Under the pieces are notes generated by a model, which did not search any database, had not been told where the DNA came from, and saw only the letters and a list, made by a program, of their open reading frames with translations. A stretch of 64,000 nucleotides of DNA from NCBI GenBank assembly GCA_030628945.1, contig DAOVPY010000001.1, positions 136,124-200,123 on the forward strand. Direction: 5' to 3'. Shown here one piece after another: positions 30,252-50,892 of the stretch. Source of the DNA: Candidatus Nealsonbacteria bacterium. Its GTDB lineage: Bacteria > Patescibacteriota > Minisyncoccia > Minisyncoccales > DAOVPY01. Both the position numbers and the translations under genes were made by a program. How positions within the stretch are numbered: the stretch's first letter is position 1; each line of letters begins with the position of its first letter.

Positions 30252-30416
30252 CACTTCGACTTCGCGGAGCGAAGGCGAAGTGCCCTGAGCTTGCCGAAGG
30301 GCAATCTCAGATAGGGCACTTTGATTTATAAAACATCACATTTTCGCTCCGCTACGCTCAGCGCAAGCTCTTCGCCGCGCGTCGAAGTGGGCTGAGTTCG
30401 TCGAAGCCCATTTTTT
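30252..30416 (+). other. GC-rich multi-hairpin element between tRNA-Gln and the GIY-YIG gene
   Basis: Hairpins lie at 30252-30282 (CACTTCG.CTTCGC-GGA-GCGAAG.CGAAGTG) and 30285-30310 (CTGAG.TTGCC-GAAG-GGCAA.CTCAG). A TGGGC...GCCCA+T6 hairpin (30388-30416) ends at the ATG. The element shares GCGGAGCGA and the TGCC-tetraloop-GGCAA hairpin with 18760-18802. Confidence 0.5.
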
Positions 30417-30674
30417 ATGTATTTTGTATATCTTCTACAGTGTGAAGATGGAAGTTTTTACACCGGAGTAACCTCAAATTTTGAAAAAAGATTTGATGAG
30501 CATAAAACAAAAAGTGGGGGTTGGCATACAAAAATTCATAAACCAGTTGAGATTTTATATACGAAAAAGTATCCAACAAAATTAGAGGCGCTCAGACGCG
30601 AAAAACAAATTAAAGGATGGAGGAGAGAAAAGAAGTTAAATCTAATTAAATTCGGCAAACCAATCATTCAATGA
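30417..30674 (+). CDS. GIY-YIG nuclease-family protein (UPF0213-like)
   Basis: The start MYFVYLLQCEDGSFYTGVTSNFEKRFDEH matches GIY...YIG with the conserved downstream R and E. Confidence 0.8.
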   Translation: MYFVYLLQCEDGSFYTGVTSNFEKRFDEHKTKSGGWHTKIHKPVEILYTKKYPTKLEALRREKQIKGWRREKKLNLIKFGKPIIQ

Positions 30675-30775
30675 ATTCAGGGTTATCCTGAACGAGTTTG
30701 AAGGCCAATTCTTAGCGCTCGGCCGGCCCTGAATTTATTGAAGGGTTCTCCCGACCGAGAGGCCTCTATAAATTT

Positions 30776-31096
30776 ATGGAAAAAGAAGATTTTAAAAAAG
30801 CAGAAAAGCTATTTAATGCCACACAAAAAGTAGTAGATTCTAAAATTCTCTCAGAGAAAGAAAAAGAGCCTTTCCAAAAAATAAATGCTCAACTTGCTGG
30901 TGTTCTGCTTAGTTCGTGGCTACCAAGGGATTGGGGACGGAAAATTATAATGTTAATTATTCTCCTCTTAGCTGTTTTTGGTGCCCTTAAGATAGATGTT
31001 TTATTTTTATTACTATTATTAATATTGCCAATTTTTTCGCCGAGAATGATGGGTGGATTAATAATGTTTATTGGTAGAATAATGGGAAATAAATAA
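30776..31096 (+). CDS. Small membrane protein, unknown function
   Basis: 106 aa with a soluble N-terminal half followed by two hydrophobic helices. Confidence 0.45.
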   Translation: MEKEDFKKAEKLFNATQKVVDSKILSEKEKEPFQKINAQLAGVLLSSWLPRDWGRKIIMLIILLLAVFGALKIDVLFLLLLLILPIFSPRMMGGLIMFIGRIMGNK

Positions 31097-31100
31097 ACCT

Positions 31101-31562
31101 ATGTTCGATTTTAAGAAAAAAAATCAAGCCGTTGAAGACGAATTACTCAAAGAATTTTTTCCGCATATTTTTGATAAATTCAAAAATTCTATTAGGGAAT
31201 ATTGGGGCAAGAAAGATAAAGAAAATTGGCAAACTATTTCTGAAAAATTAAAAGAAATAAACATAAAAACCACAGAAAAAACGGCGAAAATGATAGGTGT
31301 TAAGGAAATAAATAAAGAAATTATAGAAAGATTAGACGCCACCGGTAGTATTATAAGCAATATGCTTATCGCTCAGGGAGAGCTTTGTTCCAAAGAATGT
31401 AGTAGAAGAGAAATGACAGATGAAGAGACTAATTTTACACTCTATTTTTTTTGGAAAACTTTGAGCCAAAGGCAATTCATATTTCCGAAAGATATTTCTT
31501 TATTGGAAGAATTTTTTACTTGGTTTTCGTTGAAAAAGGAGAATAAAAAAATTAAAAAATAG
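31101..31562 (+). CDS. Hypothetical protein
   Basis: 153-aa ORF, 4 nt after the previous stop. No motif recognised. Confidence 0.45.
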   Translation: MFDFKKKNQAVEDELLKEFFPHIFDKFKNSIREYWGKKDKENWQTISEKLKEINIKTTEKTAKMIGVKEINKEIIERLDATGSIISNMLIAQGELCSKECSRREMTDEETNFTLYFFWKTLSQRQFIFPKDISLLEEFFTWFSLKKENKKIKK

Positions 31563-31615
31563 GGGATATTGACCCTTATTTTTTAGTTAATTTTGACAAA
31601 ATCAACTGGTGACCA

Positions 31616-31711
31616 ATGAGCGAAGGAGTTTTTTACCGCTTTGGCATTTTAACCGACCGGCTAAAGGGCTTTGAGTCTGAGGAGGATTTACTAAAATTAA
31701 TTGAAAAATAG
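31616..31711 (+). pseudogene. 31-codon ORF/remnant MSEGVFYRFGILTDRLKGFESEEDLLKLIEK, homologous to a start-less remnant at 32318-32410
   Basis: The two copies encode ...LTDRL(K/R)GFESEEDLLKLI.... Several differences between them are synonymous (cta/tta, gag/gaa). Confidence 0.4.
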
Positions 31712-31766
31712 AACTATTTTAAAGAAATATAAAGAATAATTAGATTAGAGAATTAATTTAAAACTT

Positions 31767-32366
31767 ATGATTAAATCAAGAGATGAATATTCAGAAAATC
31801 TTGAAAGCCAATATAGAAGAATGGGAAGAATTTATGAAGAAATTATAAAAGATTTTGAAAGCACGACTTTTTCAAAAAGTTTCCAAGAAAGATTAGATAA
31901 AGTCTATGATTTTTTTTTAATCTGTTACCACCTTAGAGAATGGGTTAAAAAAGATGCTAAGGTTGGTCAGACAATCAAAGATAAATTGCCCACTTTTGAA
32001 AAAGAAGATTCTCCCGTTCACTTCCAAATGTGCAGAGATTTATGTAATAGGTCTAAACATGTCACACTAGAAACGAAAGAACATTATAAACCTAACGATG
32101 TTAATACAAAAATTGTTCCTTGTGGAGGTGGTATTTTTTCGGTCCACAAAAAAGAATTAGAAGAAGCACGAAATAAAAAAGAGACTATTCATCTTAAAGA
32201 AGAAGATGAAATATTTTTAGGTAACTTTTTCGTCACTTTTAGGGGTAGAAATTATGACTTAAAGGGAGTTGTTCAGGCCTGCATGCATGAGTGGAAAGTC
32301 TTTTTTGAAGAAAATGATTTATTATTACCGAGGAGTACCCCTTTTCCTATCTCACCGACCGGTTAA
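31767..32366 (+). CDS. Hypothetical protein
   Basis: 199-aa ORF. FFLICYHLREWVKKD ... LCNRSKHV is faintly reminiscent of HEPN-type helical nuclease families. This resemblance is very weak. Confidence 0.45.
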   Translation: MIKSRDEYSENLESQYRRMGRIYEEIIKDFESTTFSKSFQERLDKVYDFFLICYHLREWVKKDAKVGQTIKDKLPTFEKEDSPVHFQMCRDLCNRSKHVTLETKEHYKPNDVNTKIVPCGGGIFSVHKKELEEARNKKETIHLKEEDEIFLGNFFVTFRGRNYDLKGVVQACMHEWKVFFEENDLLLPRSTPFPISPTG

Positions 32367-32415
32367 GGGGTTTTGAGTCTGAAGAAGATTTATTAAAATT
32401 AATACAATAAATAAA

Positions 32416-33222
32416 ATGTCTTTAAAGCTAATACAATTTAAAAATAAGAAAAGGGACATCATTGTCGTTTTAATAACTTTTATATCAACTATTTTACTTA
32501 ATAGTTTTGTTTTTACTACTAATAAGTTAATCGAAAAAGAATTTTTTACGGATAAAAATTATGAATTCACCATAGAGGATTCTCTGGGTTATTTACCGTT
32601 GATAGAGGGTAATAGGTGGGTTTATGAAGGATACATCGAAGAGCAGGTAGGGCATAAAAATAACGAACCGATAACAGAAAAAGAAGAATTTGATAATTAT
32701 GAGGTCACAGCAAAAGAGGTAATAAAACGTGCGGATGCCTTAGTCGTCTTGATAGAAAATTCATTCTCTATCCTGTCTTTAGAAGAAATAAGAGAGAAGA
32801 AAAGATGTTATGAGTTATGGTTTATAACTGGTGGGAAAATTTATACGATTCAAAACAGCGATTTGGCTATTCATTATTTTCAACAAATAAAAAATAAGGA
32901 AAATGTGGCAATAGATCATTCTTTGGTTGGTTTAAAGTGGGAATTCCCATTTTACGTGGACAAGAAATACGATTTTTTTCAAGAAGGAGGATTTATTTGG
33001 GAATATAATTGGTATAAGAAAAAAATAACTGAAAGTAAAAAGTTAAATATCGCGGGCGTTATATATGATAAAGAATGTTTTAAGATTGAGAACGCTGGCG
33101 TAGGATTTACGCAATCAAGTTGGTTCTGTCCCGGTATGGGCGAAGTCGAGTATGATTATCATCACAACGGTGCTGTAACTAACGTTCACTACATTCTTAA
33201 GAATTCTTTTATTAAGTATTAA
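32416..33222 (+). CDS. N-terminally membrane-anchored hypothetical protein
   Basis: 268 aa with one TM helix (IIVVLITFISTILLNSFVF). Confidence 0.45.
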   Translation: MSLKLIQFKNKKRDIIVVLITFISTILLNSFVFTTNKLIEKEFFTDKNYEFTIEDSLGYLPLIEGNRWVYEGYIEEQVGHKNNEPITEKEEFDNYEVTAKEVIKRADALVVLIENSFSILSLEEIREKKRCYELWFITGGKIYTIQNSDLAIHYFQQIKNKENVAIDHSLVGLKWEFPFYVDKKYDFFQEGGFIWEYNWYKKKITESKKLNIAGVIYDKECFKIENAGVGFTQSSWFCPGMGEVEYDYHHNGAVTNVHYILKNSFIKY

Positions 33223-33247
33223 AAACTAAAATATAAGTTTTATAAAA

Positions 33248-34132
33248 ATGTTCAAAATAACAATTGGGAGAAACATAAATGAAGTAATCAAGAATATTGG
33301 AAAATTGTTGGCTTTTTTAATTTTTCTATATGGTTTAGTTAATGCCATTATTGGACTTCACGGATATTTTAAAGACCTTATTTTTAAAAACAATAATTTA
33401 TATCAGAGGTTGTCTCAAATAAATACATTGGCGAGTGATGGTTATGTAACTGAATTATTCGGAGAGCCATTCTTAATAAGAAAATTACCGGCAGATTATC
33501 AATTTTCTGGAGACTCCGTTGCGAGCATAGAAAATTTAACCGAGAGAATTTATAGTGATGAAAAATTTTATTTACAGACGATAAGTGGAGAAAATAATGA
33601 GGTTGTGGCCTATTCTATTACAACTAGAGATAATGATTTTAATCCGTTAGTTCCTTTGGAGTTATCACGAGGAGTTCAGAATAGTGATGGTTCTTATGGT
33701 GCAAAAAAATTTATATCTGACTTAAAATTAGGAAAATCACATTTCCAAGACTTAAAAGATGAAACTCCTTTAAAAATTAGTTTCAATAGTCCAAATCAAC
33801 ACACCTTTTATTTAGAGGGGCATTATTTTGGTAGGCCCGGTGGTTATAAATATTATTTGTTTGGCATTTCTCCTTATGGAAGTCACGAAGAAAGAGACGA
33901 AATGTATGATTTGGCCCATGCCTTTATGGAGGGAAATAATGTTTTAGATGACGCAGATTTTTTGAGATGGCGTTCGGAACAGAAGTTTAATACATTCGGG
34001 ATAATCGATCTTACATTACTCTCTTTCGACATTTCTACTTCAACAGCAGAGATTAACTCAGATTTATTAGATTACTTCTTTTATCTTGGTTTAGGTCCGA
34101 CAGCAGATGTAATTTATAATTTAAATTGGTAA
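33248..34132 (+). CDS. N-terminally membrane-anchored hypothetical protein
   Basis: 294 aa with one TM helix (LLAFLIFLYGLVNAIIGL). Confidence 0.45.
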   Translation: MFKITIGRNINEVIKNIGKLLAFLIFLYGLVNAIIGLHGYFKDLIFKNNNLYQRLSQINTLASDGYVTELFGEPFLIRKLPADYQFSGDSVASIENLTERIYSDEKFYLQTISGENNEVVAYSITTRDNDFNPLVPLELSRGVQNSDGSYGAKKFISDLKLGKSHFQDLKDETPLKISFNSPNQHTFYLEGHYFGRPGGYKYYLFGISPYGSHEERDEMYDLAHAFMEGNNVLDDADFLRWRSEQKFNTFGIIDLTLLSFDISTSTAEINSDLLDYFFYLGLGPTADVIYNLNW

Positions 34133-34294
34133 CTCGAATTTATTAGTATTATATTTTATATTCACTATTCTTTCCATTGCCGTGGTCCTTTTAAGTGGGA
34201 CACCCTACTGTCCCAAACGGAACACCCCTATTCTGTGTCCCATTTTAACTTCAAAACACCCCTGACCGAGAGGCGTTATTTGTAAAATAATTAG

Positions 34295-34320
34295 AAAATT
34301 CGCCAAACAGGCGAATTTTT
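34295..34320 (+). terminator. Rho-independent terminator (bidirectional shape)
   Basis: AAAATTCGCC-AAACA-GGCGAATTTT followed by a further T. Confidence 0.55.
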
Positions 34321-34337
34321 GCTATAATCAAACAATG
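34320..34337 (+). promoter_or_regulatory. Extended -10 promoter (TGcTATAAT) only 6 nt upstream of the methyltransferase ATG; probable leaderless mRNA
   Basis: TG at 34320-34321, TATAAT at 34323-34328, ATG at 34335. There is no SD sequence. Confidence 0.4.
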
Positions 34338-35138
34338 AAGCCGTACTACCAAAAAGATAATTTTACTTTATATAATGCGGATAGTTTGGAATTTTTGAAA
34401 GAACTTCCTGAAAATTCAGTAGATATGATTTTTGCCGACCCGCCGTATTTACTTTCAAACAACGGATTTACCGTTCATGCCGGCAGGCGAGTGAGTGTAA
34501 ATAAGGGCGAATGGGATAAAAGCAATGGATTTAAAAAAGATTTTGATTTTCATCTGAATTGGATTAAGGCCTGCAAAAGAACCTTAAAGCCGCAGGGGAC
34601 TATTTGGATAAGTGGGACTTATCACTCTATTTATCAATGCGGATTTATTTTACAAAATACTGGATTCCATATCTTAAATGATATTTCATGGTTTAAACCG
34701 AATGGGTCGCCAAATTTAAGTTGTAGATATTTTACCGCAAGCCACGAAACTTTGCTTTGGGCAAAAAAAGATAAAAAGACAAATCATGTTTTTAACTATG
34801 CAAGAATGAAAGTCGGAGATTGGCCAGAGGACTTTCTAAAAAAACCAAATACACAAATGCGTTCGGTTTGGGCTATAAATACTCCAAAACCAATAGAGAA
34901 AAAATTTGGCAAACACCCAACGCAAAAACCAACAGATTTATTGAAGCGAATTGTTCTCGCGAGCACCAATAAAGGCGATTTGATTATAGATCCTTTTACT
35001 GGAAGCTCTACAACAGGACTTGCCGCTTATCTTTTTGACAGGAGATTTATTGGCATTGATAATGAAAAAAAATATTTAGACTTATCAATAAAACGATTTA
35101 AGGAGTTGGATAAAAATTTAAAAAATAAATTAAAATAA
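34335..35138 (+). CDS. Type II DNA methyltransferase, beta-class N6A/N4C (N6_N4_Mtase family)
   Basis: Motif IV is FADPPY near the N terminus. Motif I is DPFTGSSTTG near the C terminus. Confidence 0.85.
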   Translation: MKPYYQKDNFTLYNADSLEFLKELPENSVDMIFADPPYLLSNNGFTVHAGRRVSVNKGEWDKSNGFKKDFDFHLNWIKACKRTLKPQGTIWISGTYHSIYQCGFILQNTGFHILNDISWFKPNGSPNLSCRYFTASHETLLWAKKDKKTNHVFNYARMKVGDWPEDFLKKPNTQMRSVWAINTPKPIEKKFGKHPTQKPTDLLKRIVLASTNKGDLIIDPFTGSSTTGLAAYLFDRRFIGIDNEKKYLDLSIKRFKELDKNLKNKLK

Positions 35139-35142
35139 TTTT

Positions 35143-35670
35143 ATGAAAAAAGGCGGCATAGGCGGAGCTAATACAAAAACAGGACTTTATTTTGAGGGTA
35201 AAGTTGATTTTTTGACTTTCATAGCAAAGCAACAGAATTATAGTGTAAAAGGAAACACAATTTTTTATAATGGTGAAAAAGTTGCCTTGTCTTTTAAGAA
35301 ATATGGACTGTATAAATATTTAGAGAAAAATGGAGTAGATTATAAAAAATTTATTTCCAGCAAACTTTTACCTGATGACGCGATATTTGTTATTACTAAT
35401 AATACTTTTTTTATTCTTGAAATAAAATTTCAGCAAGGTGGCGGCTCTACAGATGAAAAATTACAGACATGCGATTTTAAGATTAAACAATATAGAAAAC
35501 TGTTATCGCAATTAAATGTTGAGGTGGAATATATTTATATTTTGAATAACTGGTTTAAGCAACCTAGATATAAAGATGTTTTAGATTATATTATTTCAAT
35601 AGATGGTTGTTCGTATTATTTTAATTATTTGCCGTTACAAAAAATAGGTTTACCGGTACCGAAGAATTAA
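35143..35670 (+). CDS. Type II restriction endonuclease candidate (PD-(D/E)xK)
   Basis: 175 aa, starting 4 nt after the methyltransferase gene. PDDAIFV...ILEIKFQ fits the D...ExK motif. Confidence 0.6.
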   Translation: MKKGGIGGANTKTGLYFEGKVDFLTFIAKQQNYSVKGNTIFYNGEKVALSFKKYGLYKYLEKNGVDYKKFISSKLLPDDAIFVITNNTFFILEIKFQQGGGSTDEKLQTCDFKIKQYRKLLSQLNVEVEYIYILNNWFKQPRYKDVLDYIISIDGCSYYFNYLPLQKIGLPVPKN

Positions 35671-35716
35671 TTGAAAAATAAAATTATAAATTTAGGAGAA
35701 ATAATTATTTTAATAT

Positions 35717-36325
35717 ATGTTAGATCCCAAAACATTAAATGAATTTACCAATAAAGCTAATCACGCATATCAGCAATTTTGTGTGTGGATGTATGCGAAT
35801 AACGAATTTGTTAAATATCAGGAAGAGTGGAATAAAATTCCAGAATCAAGAAAACTTTTTAAAACAGAGGAGTTTTCTAGAGAAAAATGTTGTAAGTATA
35901 AAAATTTTTGGGATGTTGTGATCACAAGCCTTCAACAGGGTTGGATAATGGGAGTTATTCGACTTTTTGATTCACCTTATTTTTTAAGAGATATAAAAAA
36001 AGAGCACCCGAGACTATCTTTATACTATATATTAGAATTACTAGAAGATAGTGATTTGGAGCAATCCATTAAAGAAGAAGTAGATAGACATAAAAACTTT
36101 ATTGATTCAATCAAAAAACAACGTCCTATTTTAGCCCATAATGAGATAAAGCCAGTTGACAGGAAAATAGAGGCTGGCATCGAAAATTTATTCGAGGCTT
36201 TAGACAATATAATTACAAAGATAAAAAGCCAGAAACCCCATCTTAAGAACTGTAATAATATCGGTCGTGAATATATGGAAAAGTTGTCCAAGTGTGGCGT
36301 TGAGGAAGTTTTTGAGAAATTATAA
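35717..36325 (+). CDS. HEPN-like (AbiU2-type) protein
   Basis: 202-aa helical protein. KKQRPILAHNE contains an R-x4-H HEPN motif near the C-terminal third. Confidence 0.45.
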   Translation: MLDPKTLNEFTNKANHAYQQFCVWMYANNEFVKYQEEWNKIPESRKLFKTEEFSREKCCKYKNFWDVVITSLQQGWIMGVIRLFDSPYFLRDIKKEHPRLSLYYILELLEDSDLEQSIKEEVDRHKNFIDSIKKQRPILAHNEIKPVDRKIEAGIENLFEALDNIITKIKSQKPHLKNCNNIGREYMEKLSKCGVEEVFEKL

Positions 36326-36335
36326 TTAAATTAAA

Positions 36336-36692: not shown

Positions 36693-36697
36693 AGATT

Positions 36698-37123
36698 ATG
36701 GAAGATAATAAGCCAGAATTAAATATTTCGATAAGCAGAGAACATAAGGAAAATTTAGAAGCGGTAAAGGAAGCTTTTAAGGGTTTTGATGTGCATATAG
36801 ATGCAGGCTACATGAGGTTTTCGGAGGGAGATTTGCCGATGCAAATTTTTATATTTATCTCTAAGGCTTTTATAGTTAGAGCCGCTTGGGATTTATTTAA
36901 AATCGGAATTAAAAAGATTTATGAAAAGTTTCCCAAAGCTCGACTTGTTATAAGGGACAAGGATTCGATTATGTACACGGTCAAGGTAGATTTTACGGTT
37001 AATGTCATAGTCGTGCCGGATAGGTGGAAGGAATTTGAAGATATAAAAACTCTTGATGACGTGATTGAACATCTGAAATCAAAGGATAATATAAATGATG
37101 CCAAGAAAAATGAGACATCTTGA
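36698..37123 (+). CDS. Hypothetical protein
   Basis: The ATG at 36698 (MEDNKPELN) is preferred over the overlapping TTG at 36674. Confidence 0.45.
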   Translation: MEDNKPELNISISREHKENLEAVKEAFKGFDVHIDAGYMRFSEGDLPMQIFIFISKAFIVRAAWDLFKIGIKKIYEKFPKARLVIRDKDSIMYTVKVDFTVNVIVVPDRWKEFEDIKTLDDVIEHLKSKDNINDAKKNETS

Positions 37124-37157
37124 ATTATTCCTAGATATTGTCTCATTTGTCTCATTT
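37109..37157 (+). repeat. Repeat R1, copy 1: hairpin AATGAGACA/TGTCTCATT plus tandem TGTCTCATT x2
   Basis: It spans the stop of the 36698-37123 gene. Copy 2 is at 42849-42898. Confidence 0.6.
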
Positions 37158-37204
37158 CCCGAACAAAACGCTCTGGCTGTGAATTTCTGTGAAACACCGC
37201 TAAA

Positions 37205-37295
37205 GTTCCAAAACGGAACATAGCACTGTTCCATTGGAACACTGCCTTTCTGTGTTCCGTTTGTTCCGTTTTAGTTTCAAAACGTCCCGACCGAG
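37205..37295 (+). repeat. GGAAC-hairpin module, copy 2 (copy 1 at 34195-34272)
   Basis: It contains GTTCC-AAAAC-GGAAC, GTTCC-ATT-GGAAC and GGAACAC-N9-GTGTTCC (37236-37258), then TTCAAAACGTCCCGACCGAG. IG4 carries GGAACAC-N9-GTGTCCC (34219-34241), then TTCAAAACACCCCTGACCGAG. Confidence 0.55.
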
Positions 37296-37360
37296 ACGGG
37301 TCGGTGGGACACCATAAAAACCGCCTAATTTACCCTTAAAACTCGGGTTCCAAAACCGAG
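37286..37360 (+). repeat. Repeat R2, copy 1 (75 nt)
   Basis: The sequence is CCCGACCGAGACGGGTCGGTGGGACACCATAAAAACCGCCTAATTTACCCTTAAAACTCGGGTTCCAAAACCGAG. It shows about 6 differences from the copy at 42923-42996. Confidence 0.7.
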
Positions 37361-37489
37361 TACGGCAGAATCATTATTATCGCAGGGTCAAAAATCCCTG
37401 TTTTTTGTTTCCAAATTTTATCAATTTATGTTATTATTGAATTGTAAAAATCAAATAGCCTAACCCTCGTAGATTTTCTATGAGATATG

Positions 37490-37643
37490 GCACAAAAAAC
37501 CCGCTACAGGATAGAAAGCTCGTCGTCAGAGCACCTGTAGCGGGTCATATCTCGAAAGGGGTATGGGTGGCGCAAGCCATCGCTGGCGGCGAGCTTTGTG
37601 CTTTTCGTTAGAAGGTATAAATAATAAAAAACCCGCTACAGGT
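37490..37643 (+). promoter_or_regulatory. Candidate structured 5' leader (three-element switch/pseudoknot) upstream of the metallophosphoesterase gene
   Basis: ACCCGCTACAGG occurs at 37499-37510 and 37631-37642. Its exact complement is at 37534-37545. AAAGCTCGTCG (37515-37525) is complementary to CGGCGAGCTTT (37587-37597). A GNRA hairpin GGTGGC-GCAA-GCCATC lies at 37566-37581. Confidence 0.35.
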
Positions 37644-38645
37644 ATGCCAAATCAAAATAAACTTTGGAAAACTAATAAACTTATAATTTATTTTTCTGTT
37701 TTGTTAGTAATCTTTTTACTTGGCGGATTGTTTTATAGAATAGGTTTTTATCACCAGATTTTAGATAAAACAGGATTAGATAAATTATTATGTTCATCGC
37801 AATCTGATTACTTATATCCCAATGAGCAAATAAAACAGCCAGAATTATTTAACAAAGACACTGATTATCCTTTTACTTTTATTGTATATGGAGATAGCAG
37901 AGAACCGGCAGGAATTGAAAAACAGATGATAATAGATAAAATTATTAAAGAAAATCCTGATTTTGTAGTTCATACTGGCGATATGGTTTATTACGGGAAC
38001 GAACACCAATGGAACATCTTTGACATTTTTGAGGGACGAATTATTAAAAAAGGTATCCCATTTTATCCGGTATTAGGAAATCACGAATATAATATAATAG
38101 AAAGTTATCATCCGAAAGAAATTGACAAGCAACTCCAGCTTTATTTTAATCGCTTTCCAGAACTTGAAAATAGACAATGGTATTCTTTCATATACGGCAA
38201 TAGCGAGTTTATTATTTTAGACAGCAATTCTCATTTGTTAGATAGTTATCAATATGATTATCTTGTTGAAAAAATGAAGGATAAAAATGGTTTTCTTTTC
38301 ATTTTTTTACACCATCCTTTTTACACGAAAGCAATCGGAAAAATAATATCGCCCGAAAGAAAAAAGGTTGCTAAAATGATTAAAAATACAGATATAGTGT
38401 TTGCCGCAGATATTCATAACTATGAAAGGTATAAAATTGATGGAATAGATTATATCACTACTGCTGGGGGCGGGGCTAATCCAAGACAAATTAACAGAAG
38501 TCAAGATGATTTTTACAATAAAAAAGGAGCAACCTATCATTATTGTAAAATCAAAGTTTTTGAAGGCCATTTTATTTTTCAGATGATACGATTAGATAAA
38601 AATAAATGGATAATATCAGATACTTTTACTAAATATATTAAATAA
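37644..38645 (+). CDS. Membrane-anchored calcineurin-like metallophosphoesterase
   Basis: The start is taken at MPNQNKLW, followed by a TM helix. Motifs are GDSRE, HTGDMVYYG, GNHEY, LHHP and DIHNYER. The 27-codon upstream extension in the ORF track (from 37563) overlaps the structured leader. Confidence 0.75.
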   Translation: MPNQNKLWKTNKLIIYFSVLLVIFLLGGLFYRIGFYHQILDKTGLDKLLCSSQSDYLYPNEQIKQPELFNKDTDYPFTFIVYGDSREPAGIEKQMIIDKIIKENPDFVVHTGDMVYYGNEHQWNIFDIFEGRIIKKGIPFYPVLGNHEYNIIESYHPKEIDKQLQLYFNRFPELENRQWYSFIYGNSEFIILDSNSHLLDSYQYDYLVEKMKDKNGFLFIFLHHPFYTKAIGKIISPERKKVAKMIKNTDIVFAADIHNYERYKIDGIDYITTAGGGANPRQINRSQDDFYNKKGATYHYCKIKVFEGHFIFQMIRLDKNKWIISDTFTKYIK

Positions 38646-38744
38646 AATCAAACAAAGTTTTGAAAAAGATAAAACAAAAAGCCGAAAATTTAATTGAGAA
38701 ATAAAATTGTGGAAAATACTGAGAAAAAAAGTTTTTGGAAAAAT

Positions 38745-38987
38745 ATGAGAAGGGATAGCGGAGAGCTTAGAGTCCTGATTGTTTTTTCCTTTTCGCTTAT
38801 TGCTTTAATGTTTGGGATTTCAGGAGAAAAGATAATAAAAAGTGGCGTTGCCGGAGAGTGGGAGATTGTTTCAAGTTTTAAGGGGTGGACGCTTTATATT
38901 ACTAGCATTTCTCCTGGTTTATTGGTTTTTGTTTTAGCTACTTTAATTCTTTGTTGGGGATTGCCGAGAGTATTAAAAAATCTATGA
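38745..38987 (+). CDS. Small two-TM membrane protein
   Basis: The ATG at 38745 (MRRDSGELRVLIVFSF...) is used here. The ORF track begins at the TTG at 38694. Confidence 0.4.
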   Translation: MRRDSGELRVLIVFSFSLIALMFGISGEKIIKSGVAGEWEIVSSFKGWTLYITSISPGLLVFVLATLILCWGLPRVLKNL

Positions 38988-39010
38988 AAGAAAAAATTAA
39001 GAAATAATCT

Positions 39011-39142
39011 ATGAAATGGATTAAAGATTTTACAAATTGGCTAACCGATGATGATAGCGGGGTAAGAATTATTATCTTTATTATTATCGTAATCTTTTTG
39101 GTTGGCATTTTCCTTACGGGGGGGGTTCAAATTATCTACTGA
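39011..39142 (+). CDS. 43-aa single-TM peptide candidate
   Basis: MKWIKDFTNWLTDDDSGVRIIIFIIIVIFLVGIFLTGGVQIIY. It is not in the ORF track because it is shorter than 60 aa. Confidence 0.3.
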   Translation: MKWIKDFTNWLTDDDSGVRIIIFIIIVIFLVGIFLTGGVQIIY

Positions 39143-39258
39143 GGAGGATAGAACTCTTGATGATTCGGGGTGGCAATCTCCTGGAAATTAAAATTTTCCT
39201 ACTTAAGAAATAGTGAGTGGCAGGGTGAAACAAAATATACTAAATTGAGTTTTTATTT

Positions 39259-39735
39259 ATGAATAAAGAAAAAAGAAAAAAAGTAGAAGTAATAGTGGCG
39301 GCGACAAGATTGGAAAATTGGAATGTCGCGAGGCGAAGAGGGATTGCTTCTCAAGAAGAAGCCGCAGCCGATGCAGATTATATTGCATTTTTTCAGGTTG
39401 GACGAAAAAATGAACCTTCAGCGATTACTCATATTGCAAGGGTAAAAAAAATTAATCATAAGGCGATAGTGGATGAATTTTTTAAAAAAAATCCAGAAAT
39501 TCTTATGCTGTCTCAGAAAGAAAACAAAGGGTGGGAGAACGATATACATCATACAGAATATCAATTAGAAGAGATAAAGGAATTGCCAAGGCCAATTATA
39601 GAAAGAAAAAGAGTGGGCACTAGATGCCAAGTAAGGCTTTATACTAAGTATGAACAAATTAAAAAAGCAAAGTATTTAAGCGACATTAAAACCATCAGTC
39701 AGATTGAGATGAATGAAAAGAAAAAGCACAAATAA
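39259..39735 (+). CDS. Hypothetical protein
   Basis: 158-aa ORF. No motif recognised. Confidence 0.45.
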   Translation: MNKEKRKKVEVIVAATRLENWNVARRRGIASQEEAAADADYIAFFQVGRKNEPSAITHIARVKKINHKAIVDEFFKKNPEILMLSQKENKGWENDIHHTEYQLEEIKELPRPIIERKRVGTRCQVRLYTKYEQIKKAKYLSDIKTISQIEMNEKKKHK

Positions 39736-39744
39736 AAATAAAAA

Positions 39745-39952
39745 ATGATTTCTGAAGAAAGACTGAAAGAATTCAAAAAGATTTATAAAAAAAGTGTTCA
39801 AAAACGCAGAGAAGAAACAAAATAGCAAAAAGGAATCAGAGGAAGCGAAAAATAATTTATTAGGATTTTTTGATTTACTTCTCAAGATTGATAGGAGAGT
39901 AAATCCTCAAAGATATAAATTAAAAAGAGGAGAGACCTGTTGGAATCAGTAA
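39745..39952 (+). pseudogene. Disrupted small ORF, copy 1 (+1 frameshift in an A7 run)
   Basis: It reads MISEERLKEFKKIYKK, then shifts frame and continues VFKNAEKKQNSKKESEEAKNNLLGFFDLLLKIDRRVNPQRYKLKRGETCWNQ. The length 39745-39952 is 3n+1. Confidence 0.5.
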
Positions 39953-39961
39953 AATTATAAA

Positions 39962-40984
39962 ATGGTTAAAATAAAAAGAATTCGTGGCATATTAAGTGAC
40001 AAGCTTCTTAATTTTTTTATAGAACGAAGGATAAATAATCTTGGTGCTTTGCGATTTTTTATTTACATTTACGCTTTATTAACAAAAGGTTTTTATGTAG
40101 GGGGACATAAAAATGCAAATCACCATTTTATCCCAAAGTTTTTACTTAAAAAATTTCGTATTATAAATACCGGAAACATTTTCATGTATATGAGAGGAAA
40201 AAGATCTACTCCAGTTTCTATTAAGAAGGAGGCCGCAGTTGTTCCAAATTTATACTCATTTCGTGATAAAAAAACCAAAGAATTGAGCGACTTTATGGAG
40301 AAACATATTTTTGCACATGTGTTGGAAAAATATGGATCGAGAATAGTCAGCCGTATTTTAAAAACTGACAAAATTGATCTAACGCATTTAGAAGAAAGCG
40401 TTCTTGTAAACTTTATTGCATTTCAATATACACGCACCCCGAGATTCTTTTTTCAATTAGAACGCGTTTTAACTTATCTCGTGAAGGAAAAGAGTGTTAC
40501 GCCAAAAGAAATGGTAAAGCCGAATTTCGCAAGAGATGTATTTATAAATAATAGTTATCAATTGCGACCTCCGGAAATCGCTCAATTTCTACAAAAAACA
40601 TCACTGAGAATTACTGGCGTGAAAAATTTAATGTTGGGTCTATCTGTTCAGATAGCGGATGACATATCGGTAAATATATTTTCCGGTAAGCTGAACTTAT
40701 TGCGCGCTACGGGATCAGAGTTCTTTTTTTTATCAGACAGTCCAGTCGAAATATTTAATTTTGGTAACAATAGATCGGTCGGTCCATTTTTTTGGGAATT
40801 GAACAATGACTTATTAATATATCTCCCTATATCGCCGACACGTTGCATTTATTATACTCATCGGATCAGTCCAGTATATCCAACTATCAACGCTAGTCTG
40901 ATAGAGAAGTTGTCGCTTCAAAGCATCCACGAATTTGCTTATTCGAATAGAAATTCATCAGTTATTGATAACGCATTGAAATAA
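39962..40984 (+). CDS. DUF4238-family protein
   Basis: The N-terminal motif NHHFIPKFLLKKF is the hallmark HxxP.FYL..F motif of DUF4238. Length is 340 aa. Confidence 0.6.
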   Translation: MVKIKRIRGILSDKLLNFFIERRINNLGALRFFIYIYALLTKGFYVGGHKNANHHFIPKFLLKKFRIINTGNIFMYMRGKRSTPVSIKKEAAVVPNLYSFRDKKTKELSDFMEKHIFAHVLEKYGSRIVSRILKTDKIDLTHLEESVLVNFIAFQYTRTPRFFFQLERVLTYLVKEKSVTPKEMVKPNFARDVFINNSYQLRPPEIAQFLQKTSLRITGVKNLMLGLSVQIADDISVNIFSGKLNLLRATGSEFFFLSDSPVEIFNFGNNRSVGPFFWELNNDLLIYLPISPTRCIYYTHRISPVYPTINASLIEKLSLQSIHEFAYSNRNSSVIDNALK

Positions 40985-40989
40985 TAGTT

Positions 40990-41178
40990 ATGCAAATTTC
41001 AGAACAAACCGTTAAAAGACTTCAGGAAATATTTAAATAAGATTACGGCAGAAAATTAAGCGAAAAAGAGGCCTTCGACGCCGCTTATAATTTATTAGGA
41101 TTTTTTGATTTACTTCTCAAAATTGATATGAGAAAAAACCCTCATATATATAAATTAAAAAAGAAAAAGATTTATTAA
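40990..41178 (+). pseudogene. Disrupted small ORF, copy 2 (in-frame TAA at 41038-41040)
   Basis: It reads MQISEQTVKRLQEIFK, then a stop, then DYGRKLSEKEAFDAAYNLLGFFDLLLKIDMRKNPHIYKLKKKKIY. About 50 nt are near-identical to copy 1 (39851-39900 versus 41086-41135). Confidence 0.5.
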
Positions 41179-41202
41179 AGTTATTAAATATAAGAAAATA
41201 AT

Positions 41203-42843
41203 ATGGTTTATCAATCAAGCAGCAAAAAAGGGGATAAAGCTAGGCTACTTTTTGAGGATTGGAACAAATATGTAGAATCAACCCTTGGTACTGAACCATG
41301 GATTATTGTTTACGCATACCATAAGGATAATTATGAAAGAATGGCATACTATTCTGCTTTAATTCCAAGGAGTATGAGAGAACAAGTTCTTAGCAAAAAT
41401 GATTGGGATTTATTACTTGGTTGGGGTCGTCCTGGTCATATTTATTATGGACAAACAAATGAAGAAAAATACTTTAGATTTGGTAACGATGAAGGCATTG
41501 AACCATTAGTTGTTTATCGTAGTTTTCCGGGAACTGGTATGAAAAGCTACGCAGAGGTATCCGAGGAATTTCGCCATTATTTTAGTCTTTATGATGATGC
41601 AAAGCATAAAAAATATATCGCATTTGACGAAGATGGCGAGCCAGAAGATGTTATCGTATTAGATGAAAACGAAATTAAAATAAAACTAAGATATATAAAA
41701 GAATTTCTTACTAATAAAGATATGTATTTGGCTTTGTTTTTTGAGCACGATAGGGATTCTATATACTCTTTAAAAGAATTAGAGCTACCGAAAATATCAA
41801 AAACTATCAAGGGAGAAAATTTTATTTATGACTACTATACAGCTGATCTTGAATTTATTCCCGAAGGAGAAAAAACAAAATCATTTGCTAGAGTAATGGG
41901 GAAGAAAATGATAGAAGGGCTTAAGGATTATAAACCACTAAGTATTTGGTCCACTAACGAAAATAAAAAATATGTCAGTTTTATAATCGATACCGACAAC
42001 GAAGGAAAAGATATTGAATATATTTGTAATCCTAAGAAATTATCTAATTACTTCGGAGCTAATCCTGGCGCTCCTCACTACTTAACCTCCGTATTTTTTA
42101 AAAGAGAAGTCTTAGGTAAGTATTATGCAGATCCAAATAGGTTTTCGGTTGAAGATGGGTATTTACGGGGCAGAGGATTAAGAATAGATAATAATCACGA
42201 AAAATATGTGATAGTATTTTTGGGTGACTTAGGATATCTATCAGAAAAAGAACAACTCTATTGGAAAAGCTATAATGTTCATTCAGATGGTGTCATAAGT
42301 AAGGTTACTTTTAAAAGAGGTTTTTTGGCTCAATTTACTGATCCCGAAAGAGAAGATTTACTTTTCAAATATAAATTTGAAATTTTTAAAAATAAATGGT
42401 TTAAAAAATTCAACTGGTATTTATTTAAACCTTTCTTGGAACAGGATGAGCATTTTTATACTTCCCTTCGCATTCCTTTATCTGAGAATCAATTAGAATT
42501 TGATCAACAAATACTTTCATTGACCAAAACATTGATTGATTCTTTGAACGAAGAAAAAATTTCTGAATCTATCACTAAAAAAGAGAATCAAGGAGGGATT
42601 ACGAAACTAGAAGAATACCTTAAAGCAAGGGGAGTATCTAATGGCAATCAACAAATAATATTTTTGAGAAGATTGCAAGATTTAAGAGATGGAGTTGGGC
42701 ATAGGAAAGGGACAAAATATTTGAGGGGTGCTAGTTATTTTAGATTAGCCGAAAATAATTTTTCTGAGGTTTACGGGGAGATTTTAAATCAAGCTATTCA
42801 ATTATTAGATTTTCTAGAACAACATTTTTTAGACCTTAAATAA
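41203..42843 (+). CDS. Hypothetical 546-aa protein with HEPN-like C-terminal tail
   Basis: LRRLQDLRDGVGHRKG contains R-x4-H within a helical C-terminal region. The N-terminal ~400 aa are unassigned. Confidence 0.45.
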   Translation: MVYQSSSKKGDKARLLFEDWNKYVESTLGTEPWIIVYAYHKDNYERMAYYSALIPRSMREQVLSKNDWDLLLGWGRPGHIYYGQTNEEKYFRFGNDEGIEPLVVYRSFPGTGMKSYAEVSEEFRHYFSLYDDAKHKKYIAFDEDGEPEDVIVLDENEIKIKLRYIKEFLTNKDMYLALFFEHDRDSIYSLKELELPKISKTIKGENFIYDYYTADLEFIPEGEKTKSFARVMGKKMIEGLKDYKPLSIWSTNENKKYVSFIIDTDNEGKDIEYICNPKKLSNYFGANPGAPHYLTSVFFKREVLGKYYADPNRFSVEDGYLRGRGLRIDNNHEKYVIVFLGDLGYLSEKEQLYWKSYNVHSDGVISKVTFKRGFLAQFTDPEREDLLFKYKFEIFKNKWFKKFNWYLFKPFLEQDEHFYTSLRIPLSENQLEFDQQILSLTKTLIDSLNEEKISESITKKENQGGITKLEEYLKARGVSNGNQQIIFLRRLQDLRDGVGHRKGTKYLRGASYFRLAENNFSEVYGEILNQAIQLLDFLEQHFLDLK

Positions 42844-42848
42844 CTGTT

Positions 42849-42898
42849 AAATGAGACACTATAATATACCCCTAAGTAGTGTCTCATTTGTCTCATTT
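42849..42898 (+). repeat. Repeat R1, copy 2
   Basis: A 12-bp hairpin AAATGAGACACT/AGTGTCTCATTT is followed by a second GTCTCATTT. Confidence 0.6.
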
Positions 42899-42922
42899 GT
42901 GCTATAATTTGGCAATAAAGAG

Positions 42923-42996
42923 CCCGACTGAGACGGGTCGGTGGGACACTCTAAAAATCGCCTAATTTACCCTTAAAACTCGGGTTCCAGACCGAG
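42923..42996 (+). repeat. Repeat R2, copy 2 (74 nt)
   Basis: See copy 1 at 37286-37360. Confidence 0.7.
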
Positions 42997-43131
42997 GTTG
43001 CCAGCCACGAAAAGTGGCTTCGCCACCTCGTGGCAAGCCGCTTTGAAGTGAGTCGGGCGATGAATTGCGTAGCAATTCATTTTCATTTTGCGCGATAACT
43101 TAGCGCTCGGTTCTCCCGACCGAGCTACTAC

Positions 43132-43156
43132 AAAATCGCCAAAATGGCGGTTTTTT
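43132..43156 (+). terminator. Rho-independent terminator
   Basis: AAAATCGCC-AAAAT-GGCGGTTTT followed by further T residues. Confidence 0.5.
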
Positions 43157-43297
43157 GTTAGAATAAAGCAAGAAAGAAAAAATTAATTGAGAAATAAACA
43201 TCATGCGCAATAAATATAACACCCTTACAAACTTGAGAATGTAAGGATGTTATAATTGATAAATGTAGATGTGAGGGGAAAAATGGGGTTAGGTCTG

Positions 43298-43328
43298 TTT
43301 TTTTTCGCCAAGAAGGCGGTTTTTTTTG
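43298..43328 (+). terminator. Rho-independent terminator (A-run/T-run flanked, bidirectional shape)
   Basis: T-run, CGCC-AAGAA-GGCG, then G and T8. Confidence 0.5.
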
Positions 43329-43367
43329 ATATAATCAATATTATGTCAAGCATTCTTACTTATCCAC

Positions 43368-43395
43368 TTGACAAGATTTCTTTACACGCTATAAT
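43368..43395 (+). promoter_or_regulatory. Consensus sigma70 promoter of the TA operon; near-leaderless
   Basis: TTGACA (43368-43373), a 16-nt spacer, then TATAAT (43390-43395). The ATG at 43404 is only 8 nt downstream. Confidence 0.55.
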
Positions 43396-43403
43396 AGAAA
43401 TGT

Positions 43404-44183
43404 ATGGTTAAAAATTTACACCAAAAAATTAAACTGTTGAGGCAAAAAAACGATTTCTCGCAGGAGTATATGGCTAAAGCATTGAAAATGTCCCGCCCAA
43501 CCTATATGCAAATTGAGCAGGGTGAGCGTGAACTCACCATAACCGAAGCAAAAAAACTTGCCAGTATTTTTAGTATTTCGTTTGAGGACTTTCTTGCCGG
43601 TAAAGCGCCGAAGTACAAAGTGACTATAGAGCGGAAGAAAACATCCAATAAACCTTCTGATTTTCAAATTCGTGTAACGAAAAAGAATTTAGAGAAATTT
43701 AAGCAAGTATTATTGTATGTACTTGGAAAAGTTGGCAGTAAGCCGAATGTTGGTGAAACTGTTATTCATAAATTGCTTTATTTTATTGATTTTGACTACT
43801 ATGAGAAATTTGAAGAAAGTTTGATGGGAGCCACATATATTAAAAACTATCATGGACCAACTTCAAAAGAGTTGGGGCCAATTCTTGCGGATATGCAGAA
43901 AAAAGGAGAGATTGAGGCAGTAAAAAGTAAGTATTTTAAGTACGAACAAAAAAAATATCTCCCACTCAAGCGGCCAAACCTTGATGTGCTTTCAGCGCGC
44001 GAAATAGAACATATTGATGATGTTTTAGCGCGCCTATCTGATAAAAACGCGCGAGAAATAGAAAATTATTCGCATAACGATATCCCATGGAAGACCGCTG
44101 AAGATGGCAAGCCGCTTTCTTATGAAAGTGTTTTTTATCGTGATGAGCGCTATTCCGTAAGAAATTATGACGATGAACTTTAA
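43404..44183 (+). CDS. HTH-XRE / Panacea (DUF4065, SocA-like) domain antitoxin
   Basis: The N-terminal region LRQKNDFSQEYMAKALKMSRPTYMQIEQGER is an XRE-type HTH. The central region VIHKLLYFIDFDYYEKFEESLMGATYIKNYHGP is typical of DUF4065. Confidence 0.7.
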   Translation: MVKNLHQKIKLLRQKNDFSQEYMAKALKMSRPTYMQIEQGERELTITEAKKLASIFSISFEDFLAGKAPKYKVTIERKKTSNKPSDFQIRVTKKNLEKFKQVLLYVLGKVGSKPNVGETVIHKLLYFIDFDYYEKFEESLMGATYIKNYHGPTSKELGPILADMQKKGEIEAVKSKYFKYEQKKYLPLKRPNLDVLSAREIEHIDDVLARLSDKNAREIENYSHNDIPWKTAEDGKPLSYESVFYRDERYSVRNYDDEL

Positions 44184-44511
44184 TGAGTTGCCAGAGTTCA
44201 CAAAAGAATGTAAGCGGCTTGCAAAAAAGTATAAATCTCTCCCGAATGATTTGCAGGAATTTAGAAAGGTCGTCTCTGTGGCGCCACTCGGCAACAGCAA
44301 ACATTTTAATATCGTCACCCAATCTGAAAGCGTCAAAATAGTTAAGGCGCGCTTTTTTTGTAGATATTTGAAAGGATCATCCCTGCGAATTATTTACGCA
44401 TATATTGAAAGGAAAAAAAGAATTGAGTTTATTGAGATGTATTTCAAAGGAAATAAGGAAAATGAAGATAGAGAAAGAATAAAACAATATTTGAAATCTT
44501 TTGATATTTAA
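44167..44511 (+). CDS. RelE/ParE-superfamily-like toxin partner
   Basis: 114 aa, overlapping the antitoxin gene by 17 nt. The LRIIYAYIERKKRIEFIEMYFKGNKENED pattern is typical of this class. Confidence 0.5.
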   Translation: MTMNFNELPEFTKECKRLAKKYKSLPNDLQEFRKVVSVAPLGNSKHFNIVTQSESVKIVKARFFCRYLKGSSLRIIYAYIERKKRIEFIEMYFKGNKENEDRERIKQYLKSFDI

Positions 44512-44593
44512 CTCTGCCCACCGCCCTTTTAAATCCGCAGATGATTAAAAGATTTCAAGTGTTTAAGATCCGTGCTTAAACATTAGAAAATAA

Positions 44594-44625
44594 CTATTCT
44601 CTTATTCGCGCGAATAAGAGAATAG
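44594..44625. repeat. Perfect 32-bp palindrome
   Basis: CTATTCTCTTATTCGC|GCGAATAAGAGAATAG, two exact 16-nt arms with no spacer. Confidence 0.9.
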
Positions 44626-50880: not shown

Positions 50881-50892
50881 AATAATAACCAA

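Follow-up and report, generated by a model that had tools for sequence, protein, structure and literature searches.

Genomic islands linked to tRNA genes, among them integrative elements that accrete in tandem, form a well-known class. They abut the 3' end of the tRNA gene, deviate in composition from their surroundings, carry defence and toxin–antitoxin (TA) cargo and differ in content between relatives; direct repeats flank them, and internal partial repeats divide them into segments. Sedentary chromosomal integrons hold co-oriented genes, many orphans, TA pairs and recurring non-coding gaps, and most of their units lack a recombinase. In E. coli pan-genomes, integration hotspots for defence islands have reportedly been described between conserved core genes. 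Genes for free-standing homing endonucleases of the GIY-YIG type also occur near tRNA genes, for example segB in a tRNA cluster of phage T4. Here we analysed an island directly 3' of a tRNA-Gln gene in a 64,000-nt stretch of Candidatus Nealsonbacteria DNA (hereafter the window), together with two non-coding elements that recur in it, the tRNA trailer hairpin H1 and an element of about 100 nt, E. Our searches of the literature turned up no account of this locus or of element E.

The locus has in common with tRNA-linked islands all of the traits named above, with H1 as the flanking direct repeat and with defence and TA cargo that is in part putative, and relatives carry a large serine recombinase at the equivalent site. 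It differs in that the duplicated unit is the trailer hairpin and not the tRNA 3' end, that an integrase is lacking, that a mimic of the tRNA end (E) stands on the distal side, and that a homing-endonuclease-type GIY-YIG cassette occupies the joint between tRNA and trailer. With sedentary integrons it shares the co-oriented genes, the many orphans, a putative TA pair, some recurring non-coding gaps and the lack of a recombinase. However, intI, attI and Pc are all lacking, the repeats are absent from many gene boundaries and are conserved as sequence rather than as imperfect RYYYAAC/GTTRRRY hairpins, and several genes have consensus-like promoters and terminators of their own. As in the E. coli hotspots, the occupants vary at a fixed position between anchors, and restriction–modification (R-M), Abi-like and TA genes are enriched; here, in contrast, the anchors are RNA genes and non-coding sequences (tRNA-Gln, H1 and E), the hosts are Patescibacteria with tiny genomes, and the cargo consists mostly of orphan genes. 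The GIY-YIG gene resembles segB in that a small open reading frame (ORF) is inserted exactly next to a tRNA gene, occurs in some genomes only and is often accompanied in relatives by duplicated tRNA 3' fragments. It differs in its size (85 amino acids (aa), just the catalytic domain and no DNA-binding domain that can be recognised) and in its bacterial chromosomal location, and cleavage and homing by it are only putative.

The window is part of a metagenomic scaffold of 316 kb (ZHAN22-2_SAMN18200505 scaffold_6), of which about 73 kb was examined, namely the window and about 9.6 kb beyond it. By its FtsX homologues it falls in Patescibacteria, near Parcubacteria/'Nealsonbacteria' bins. On the left, prfB, ftsE and ftsX are followed by tRNA-Gln (anticodon CTG), and the island begins 1 nt after the tRNA; on the right come an EncFtn-like gene (44742), csp (45114), a GH130 gene and a PpiC-type gene. 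An earlier note on this DNA had described the stretch between tRNA-Gln and the ferritin-like/csp genes as ORF-rich, encoded on a single strand and A+T-rich. We found about 20 ORFs of at least 50 aa in 30.4-44.5 kb, and each plausible gene is on the + strand. This + strand run spans 12851 to about 62000, flanks included, and the co-orientation is therefore not specific to the island. The A+T-richness is borne out by both GC content (0.328 in the island versus 0.382 in the remaining window) and GC at third codon positions (0.277 in island ORFs versus 0.383 in core ORFs). A low-GC island of accessory and putative defence genes thus spans 30253 to about 43130 and takes in the adjoining putative TA pair, which reaches about 44600.

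To place the locus, 80 loci around FtsX homologues from metagenomes and three closer relatives were compared (numbered with the prefix L). The order ftsX then tRNA-Gln was found in 57 of 73 related loci. It is kept in the three closer relatives (L010, L009 and L011, with FtsX 72, 66 and 56% identical), none of which has any cargo in common with the window; their cargo again includes R-M, GIY-YIG and HEPN genes. Between loci, 28% of the genes of at least 80 aa are common downstream, versus 66% upstream. These results uphold the earlier proposal of an accessory island at a variable locus beside tRNA-Gln. A scan of GTDB genomes with FtsX only gave one relative, 39% identical and with different synteny.

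The occupants of the site differ by genome, and one subclade is a clearer example than the shared-gene percentages. In L091, FtsZ follows tRNA-Gln with no intervening gene of at least 50 aa, and in L082 FtsZ, a carbohydrate kinase and a thioredoxin-reductase-like gene stand directly after the tRNA; in L025, L042 and L049, of the same subclade as L091 and L082, these three genes come after 4-7 extra genes. The extra DNA of L049 is bounded by repeats of more than 100 nt that hold the tRNA-Gln 3' end and H1, with three tandem att-like copies. In six relatives (L046, L051, L073, L080, L089 and L090), the gene immediately behind tRNA-Gln, on the minus strand, encodes a large serine recombinase of about 500 aa (Resolvase, Recombinase and Zn_ribbon_recom domains); in L046 the recombinase element parts tRNA-Gln from H1, and H1 is found again 6.7 kb downstream. 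Eight genomes (L027, L047, L052, L059, L066, L069, L091 and L094) have a LAGLIDADG gene of about 250-300 aa between ftsX and tRNA-Gln. L066 also carries tRNA-Gln(CTG) twice in the same orientation (4210-4283 and 10201-10275), 6 kb apart with six genes between, which suggests an element flanked by whole-tRNA duplicates. In the window, gene annotation and profile scans detected no recombinase or transposase in the island, the rest of the window or the 9.6 kb beyond, and tblastn with the serine recombinases of relatives gave no match in the window. The earlier statement that no intI-like, tyrosine/serine recombinase or transposase ORF is present thus holds over the 73 kb.

H1 is the native trailer of tRNA-Gln. 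In at least 12 related loci it starts 1-2 nt after the tRNA, with the consensus AGTCTAGTGCTCGGTTCGAGAGACCGAGACGCC; in the closest relative, L010, the trailer reads AACTTAGTGCGCGGTTCGAGAGACCGACC. The left copy in the window (H1-left) shares homology with the stretch that comes immediately after tRNA-Gln in L010, L093, L076, L066 and others. The right copy (H1-right), a direct repeat of it 12.4 kb away, is 81.5% identical over 65 nt to L011 14099-14163. Second H1 copies on the + strand, 1.5-8.7 kb downstream, were also found in L011, L023, L040, L046, L048, L049 and L093. The earlier note had listed the two occurrences of CTTAGCGCTCGG...TTCTCCCGACCGAG in the window (30716-30759 and 43099-43124), and the repeat is real; it had missed that this is a duplicated tRNA-Gln trailer. 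It had also failed to find the tRNA-Gln 3' end duplicated at the right edge of the island, and indeed a search of the window allowing up to 3 mismatches returned a single match. Judged by its sequence, the H1 pair is the 'missing' right-edge repeat that had been sought.

The GIY-YIG cassette (459 nt) fits exactly between the tRNA-Gln 3' end and H1-left, and its GC content is 0.407, versus about 0.31 in adjacent island segments. Because H1 natively starts 1-2 nt past tRNA-Gln in relatives, this cassette is an insertion at the joint between tRNA and trailer. Of 14 small GIY-YIG genes in the related loci, 13 have a tRNA gene next to them. Stand-alone GIY-YIG genes of about 60-130 aa beside tRNA Gln, Gly or Thr were seen in L040, L041, L051, L056, L074, L085, L086, L087 and L090 as well as in the window (30417-30674). 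In L030, L033, L040, L056, L062 and L074, tRNA-Gln is followed by a second copy of its T-arm and acceptor end, with a GC-rich hairpin inserted in the T-loop. A GC-rich insert of 77 nt at the corresponding joint, directly upstream of H1-right, bears a weak resemblance to the DNA just 5' of the GIY-YIG ORF (local alignment of 30346-30426 with 43017-43090, score 35; shuffles 21.6 +/- 3.4, maximum 34) and may be the remnant of a second cassette.

H1 is also linked to the intergenic motif C(C/A)CGAC(C/T)G(A/G), which the earlier note had placed in seven gaps of the island. The motif in that form fits 4 of the 7 sites, and also 8770 and 36261 on the minus strand (6 matches versus 0.83 expected); two of the seven sites, 31652 and 32354, are coding. 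Refined to CCYGACYGAG, it occurs at 30750, 34261, 37286, 42923 and 43115 (5 matches in the whole window versus 0.09 expected). All five sites are intergenic, on the + strand and within the island, and no copy was found in the other ~50 kb of the window or the 9.6 kb beyond. As judged from the alignments, the five sites are copies of two conserved elements, H1 and E, which share a core of 10-13 nt (GACCGAGASG), and the motif does not represent a recombination site that each cassette would carry. The larger repeat modules described earlier are real as well, in addition to the H1 pair. The repeat 37286-37352 and 42923-42989 (94% identity, 67 nt) is part of E, and 39852-39926 and 41087-41161 (91% over 75 nt) are two copies of a decayed ORF of about 60 codons; the third pair is 31652-31701 and 32354-32403 (88%).

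Element E is non-coding and has the consensus CCCGACCGAGACGCGTCAGTGGGACAC..AAAAA..AATTTCCCCTTAAAA..GGTTCTAGACCGAGGTTGCCAGC. Of its three occurrences in the window, E2 is intact, E1 is degenerate and the third is a 5' fragment (34257-34318, profile positions 9-58, nhmmer E = 0.006). E keeps 70-81% nucleotide identity among genomes whose FtsX is only about 45-57% identical. An nhmmer profile of E gave 21 hits at E < 1e-6 in 18 loci including the window, every one downstream of ftsX/tRNA-Gln; 396 kb upstream and 345 kb downstream were searched (P about 1e-6). In L007, tRNA-Gln is inverted and detached from ftsX, and E still lies 3' of tRNA-Gln on the same strand. The 5' end of E carries the GACCGAGASG core, the same as the 3' arm of H1, and L066 and L068 have genome-specific variants of the core that are common to the H1 and E of one genome. 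The 3' end of E (GGTTCYAGACCGAGGTTGCCAGC) resembles the T-arm and acceptor end of tRNA-Gln (GGTTCGAATCCAAGCCCGGCAGC). A copy of the genome's own tRNA-Gln trailer comes after E in L021 (59 nt), in L007 (69 nt, identical) and in the window. We rejected the rule that E always precedes the local trailer, which is true in 3 of about 19 loci. Several copies, together with truncated 5'-only or 3'-only copies, occur within single loci.

A small RNA of the LOOT family (Rfam RF03000), missed in the earlier note, lies 3' of E1. Three samples (SAMN18200505, SAMN18200506 and SAMN18200507) contain the same island at about 100% identity, and a contig from a sister sample (L015) departs from it at this place. 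L015 is identical to window 37491-43775, has all of its 13 mismatches in 37377-37490, and shows no homology with the window to the left of about 37373-37383, where E1 has its 3' edge. Such a graded difference agrees with a recombination tract ending inside LOOT and a structural boundary at E1. Of the breakpoints that the earlier note had proposed to look for at the junctions, at least this one is seen at population level, and the island is otherwise nearly identical between the samples. Other sister contigs that end at the island borders were considered as strain variation and rejected, since the pieces tile one island of about 100% identity, the left end of L015 excepted. A second copy of the LOOT 5' arm (AAAAAACCCGCTACAGG, 37494-37510) stands at 37626-37642 and ends one base ahead of the likely ATG (37644) of a metallophosphoesterase gene. 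The 3' arm (CCTGTAGCGGG, 37537-37547) could therefore pair with either copy, which hints that LOOT acts in cis as a regulator at this place.

These observations incline us, with modest confidence, to the reading that the locus is a hotspot anchored at tRNA-Gln, probably filled by serial insertion or replacement that left H1 and E copies as scars. The interval between the tRNA-Gln/H1 anchor and E would have seen repeated insertion or replacement of DNA. The routes would be recombinases acting in trans or since lost, together with homologous recombination between the anchors tRNA-Gln, H1, E and LOOT. The extra H1 and E scars would delimit three segments, S1 (30.8-34.3 kb), S2 (34.3-37.3 kb) and S3 (37.3-42.9 kb), and the GIY-YIG cassette would have been added later at the joint of tRNA and H1.

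Several points weigh against this hotspot reading. Since no recombinase lies within the 73 kb, the mechanism of insertion is one that we infer. Large serine recombinases normally leave very short repeats, and thus the H1 duplication of about 30-40 nt and the 10-20-nt identity between H1 and E are unexplained by them alone. With FtsX at most 72% identical, the relatives are remote, and ordinary loss of synteny thus accounts for part of the variability downstream; many downstream genes in relatives are housekeeping genes. Among 60 whole contigs, breaks are no commoner after tRNA-Gln than before ftsX. Given the identity between the three samples, the island is not visibly in flux save in L015, and the left end of that contig could be an assembly chimera. 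The association of E with a copy of the local trailer is confined to the three loci named above, and E could in most genomes be simply a stable chromosomal feature. The survey of E and H1 in relatives covers +/-10 kb of ftsX.

E could instead be an undescribed small RNA gene with a tRNA-like 3' end, and H1 a shared trailer or processing signal. Along with tRNA-Gln and LOOT, the two would then be no more than homology anchors for the exchange of cargo by natural transformation and homologous recombination; site-specific recombination would play no part, and extra E copies would be by-products of unequal or illegitimate exchange. A AAATGAGACAC/GTGTCTCATTT repeat module and a TGnTAAAAT box often come before E. 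An extended -10 (TGTGCTATAAT or TGTGCTAAAAT) was found 13-15 nt upstream of E2 in the window and of E in L097, L071 and L040. A terminator-like hairpin follows about 5-120 nt past E in several loci. With a promoter-like box 5' and a terminator-like hairpin 3', E may therefore be a small-RNA gene. Consistently, E is about as conserved as the adjacent tRNA among genomes with FtsX about 50% identical, its two short hairpins have G-U pairs on the + strand and some compensatory changes, and in most loci E has no flanking trailer repeat. The graded divergence tract of L015 that ends inside LOOT is a signature of homologous recombination, and a ComEC-type competence gene lies upstream in the window.

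The folding of E speaks against a small RNA. Its copies fold no better than shuffled sequences (z -1.9 to +1.4), the RNAalifold consensus is -4 kcal/mol, and 72% of cells are paired, versus 69% in shuffles. A structured RNA was rejected on these folds and pair counts, which give only two short hairpins with modest covariation. A search of E1 and E2 against Rfam 15 gave no family at E <= 1 except a spurious minus-strand L2-leader (E = 0.054), and no family was found for E in 14 related loci. A tRNA-like gene was rejected as well: acceptor-stem pairing occurs in window E2 only, and neither the Rfam tRNA model nor ARAGORN gave a match. The several and truncated copies of E per locus, and the H1 direct repeats that bracket the island, also argue against this explanation, which we regard as unlikely but the best of the alternatives. 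Four other candidates for E were tried and rejected. By inspection, a coding sequence would meet stops in every frame. In viruses (IMG/VR), one exact pattern had 0 matches, and the other had 52, in GC-rich phage contigs, none with the full element. No single upstream gene is linked to E, as the ten genes upstream of it belong to unrelated families. E does not move with the 546-aa cargo gene, whose nearest homologue has no E.

In a bolder version of the hotspot reading, which we consider rather improbable, E and H1 would serve as DNA sites for an undescribed system of gene acquisition that has its anchor at tRNA-Gln across Patescibacteria. E would be a mimic of the tRNA end that serves as a second target beside the real tRNA, and enzymes acting in trans would insert, stack and swap orphan and defence genes with no need for a recombinase in cis. 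These enzymes could be large serine recombinases brought in by passing elements or, by way of break-induced repair, the GIY-YIG and LAGLIDADG endonucleases encoded beside tRNA genes. Such a system would be analogous to an integron platform in function and unrelated to it in mechanism.

A true integron-like platform beside tRNA-Gln appears slightly more doubtful still. In this explanation each gene or small set of genes would be a cassette with its own structured site (E or a hairpin core), inserted beside tRNA-Gln by a recombinase encoded elsewhere. The lack of a recombinase in cis agrees with this, as do minimal loci in which one gene and E are flanked by the core (L064, L076, L093 and L007) and the three tandem att-like copies of L049. 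In L011 (11700-19560), eight near-identical junction modules stand between single small membrane-protein genes. The module consists of GGTTCTAAnAnCGTCCA..CCCGCAG, which resembles the tRNA-Gln 3' end, a CCGAGAGTTTTTCTCGGGG hairpin and TATAAT, and its first motif is found inverted just after tRNA-Gln; this locus comes closer than the window to the look of a true cassette array. In the window, however, five core sites serve about 20 ORFs, most gene junctions have no shared element, and two of the seven sites first listed are coding. E is conserved in sequence and not in structure, forms no long imperfect hairpin and folds weakly, and neither intI, attI or attC nor the GTTRRRY/RYYYAAC architecture was found. 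Several genes have consensus-like promoters and terminators of their own, and the nearest homologue of the 546-aa protein (76% aa identity) has no E and lies in unrelated flanks. The earlier view of the island as an array of cassettes, in which a structured junction would follow every promoter-poor ORF, therefore does not hold.

The weakest explanation, that the repeats are generic intergenic furniture (repetitive extragenic palindrome (REP)-like sequences, terminators or promoters) with no link to the island, is very improbable: it is true of the TCGCC-N-GGCG-T-run-TAGAAT module, which occurs in at least 12 unrelated loci and at 44662 and 45338 outside the island, and promoter-like sites are not enriched (68 by consensus scan versus 63 expected, several genes being preceded by extended -10 and terminator modules), but it is largely refuted for the core, H1 and E, which show no dispersal of the REP or bacterial interspersed mosaic element (BIME) type, with 0 copies in the ~59 kb of non-island sequence checked (~50 kb in the window and 9.6 kb beyond), and lie in relatives downstream of tRNA-Gln only. 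Recurring non-coding sequences specific to the island, as the earlier note had claimed, are thus real. The features of the locus are collected in Table 1.

Table 1. Positions of features in and beside the tRNA-Gln island (window coordinates).
Feature	Position	Strand	Basis
tRNA-Gln (anticodon CTG), left anchor of hotspot	30181-30252	+	ARAGORN; Rfam tRNA 52.8 bits
GIY-YIG cassette: GC-rich nested hairpins (30253-30410), 85-aa GIY-YIG ORF (30417-30674), 3' hairpin	30253-30711	+	Pfam E = 1.5e-19
H1-left, native tRNA-Gln trailer hairpin: CTTAGCGCTCGG[23-nt nested insert]TTCTCCCGACCGAGAGG; core copy 1	30712-30762	+	homology to relatives
Segment S1, orphan ORFs of 106, 153, 199, 268 and 294 aa	30776-34132	+	no significant Pfam/PADLOC match
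31-codon micro-ORF (MSEGVFYRFGILTDRLKGFESEEDLLKLIEK); holds site 31652	31616-31711	+	translation
Partial out-of-frame copy of the 3' part of the micro-ORF; overlaps the 199-aa ORF at its end; site 32354	32330-32410	+	repeat comparison
GGGAC/GGAAC inverted-repeat module, then 5' fragment of E (core copy 2, 34261), terminator-like hairpin, extended -10 TGCTATAAT	34180-34318	+	nhmmer; alignment with 37124-37400
Candidate type II R-M: N6/N4 methyltransferase (34335-35138) and 175-aa ORF (35143-35670)	34335-35670	+	profiles
Candidate AbiU2-like HEPN protein, 202 aa	35717-36325	+	Pfam HEPN_AbiU2 E = 8e-6, 25.9 bits, below 26.8 cut-off
AAATGAGACA...TGTCTCATTTGTCTCATTT module, then GGAACA/TGTTCC inverted-repeat array upstream of E1	37108-37285	+	sequence
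E1, full-length copy of E with degenerate 3' tail; core copy 3	37276-37374	+	nhmmer E = 1.5e-22
LOOT small RNA (RF03000)	37457-37581	+	90.2 bits versus gathering 46.4, E = 8e-16, model positions 1-121
Calcineurin-like metallophosphoesterase	37644-38645	+	Pfam Metallophos E = 1.7e-13
DUF4238 gene (39962-40984) between two decayed ~60-codon ORF copies (39744-39962, 40990-41197)	39744-41197	+	Pfam E = 7e-30
546-aa protein, RDGVGH motif near C-terminus	41203-42843	+	homologue search
E2 (42915-43017) with upstream module, best-scoring of all E copies; core copy 4 at 42923	42850-43017	+	nhmmer E = 1.3e-27
GC-rich 77-nt hairpin insert between E2 and H1-right	43018-43094	+	weak similarity to region upstream of GIY-YIG ORF
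H1-right: AACTTAGCGCTCGGTTCTCCCGACCGAGC; core copy 5; direct repeat of H1-left	43095-43126	+	alignment
Generic terminator-like hairpin and extended -10 (TCGCCAAAATGGCGGTTTTTTGTTAGAAT)	43132-43164	+	further copies at 34300, 43305, 44662, 45338
Palindrome with 14-bp arms, ATAACACCCTTACA-N10-TGTAAGGATGTTAT, and flanks	43216-43302	+	84% identical to L009 19662-19746
Helix-turn-helix (HTH) + SocA_Panacea antitoxin (259 aa) and overlapping 114-aa putative toxin	43404-44511	+	SocA_Panacea E = 1e-16; HTH_3 E = 7e-12

The gene modules that the earlier note had named were recovered in part. Significant profiles were obtained for the GIY-YIG protein, the methyltransferase, the DUF4238 protein and the HTH + SocA_Panacea antitoxin, but not for the 175-aa enzyme, the supposed HEPN tail of the 546-aa protein or the 114-aa toxin; the match of the AbiU2-like protein is just under the Pfam cut-off. 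On the island, PADLOC recognised the type II methyltransferase (MTase_II E = 2e-98; Pfam E = 4e-57) and otherwise gave only weak HTH matches. The 175-aa ORF next to it has a PD...EIK motif and a sub-threshold match to PDDEXK_11 (E = 0.08). Among the orphans of S1, the 294-aa ORF (33248-34132) contains an ETEC_3214 domain (NCBIfam NF043066, E = 3e-40).

For the metallophosphoesterase, the likely start is the ATG at 37644; the mechanical ORF begins at 37563, and gene calls give 333 or 349 aa. Both decayed ORF copies that flank the DUF4238 gene contain in-frame stops. The 546-aa protein has no match in Pfam, PADLOC, NCBIfam or PDB. Its 1322 homologues, at 42-52% identity, come from Bacillota, Actinomycetota, Chloroflexota, Elusimicrobiota and archaea, a distribution that suggests a family widely spread by frequent horizontal transfer; one homologue is labelled 'ApeA N-terminal domain-containing'. 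The putative TA pair lies beyond the H1 direct repeats. The antitoxin gene has a consensus promoter (43368-43395, 12/12 positions), and the 114-aa putative toxin has no match in Pfam, NCBIfam or PADLOC.

The 31-codon micro-ORF was missed by gene callers. It is kept intact in the distant L027 (15688-15780), with 74% aa identity and 75% DNA identity over 111 nt. The module upstream of E2 contains the AAATGAGACAC/GTGTCTCATTT hairpin, GTCTCATTT and TGTGCTATAAT, and the one upstream of E1 has a 19-nt exact repeat with 42880-42898. Four copies of the palindrome at 43216-43302 surround an ArsR/HTH_5 gene in L009 (19315-20356); the window site has no such gene nearby. Outside the island, more than 20 copies of a 78-nt repeat (26 codons, Cys-containing) extend over three large ORFs downstream of it (48350-52020), and a tRNA-Ile with the anticodon TAT (UAU), uncommon in bacteria, lies at 18606-18680.

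Patescibacteria have tiny, streamlined genomes, and little is known of how they acquire accessory and defence genes. Our results point to a fixed hotspot 3' of tRNA-Gln that is common to many deeply divergent Patescibacteria and is occupied, depending on the genome, by large serine recombinases, by homing-endonuclease genes or by recombinase-less stacks. Element E is a new and widely conserved landmark of this site, conserved about as well as the adjacent tRNA and not in Rfam. It may be the arm or scar of an attachment site, a tRNA-end mimic that acts as a second target, or a small RNA gene. If E is only the scar of old insertions, the locus would be an ordinary tRNA-linked island in an unusual lineage. 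If E proves to be a recombination target or a tRNA-like small RNA, it would provide a searchable landmark for variable genes in metagenome bins of the candidate phyla radiation (CPR), and a candidate site for genetic manipulation.

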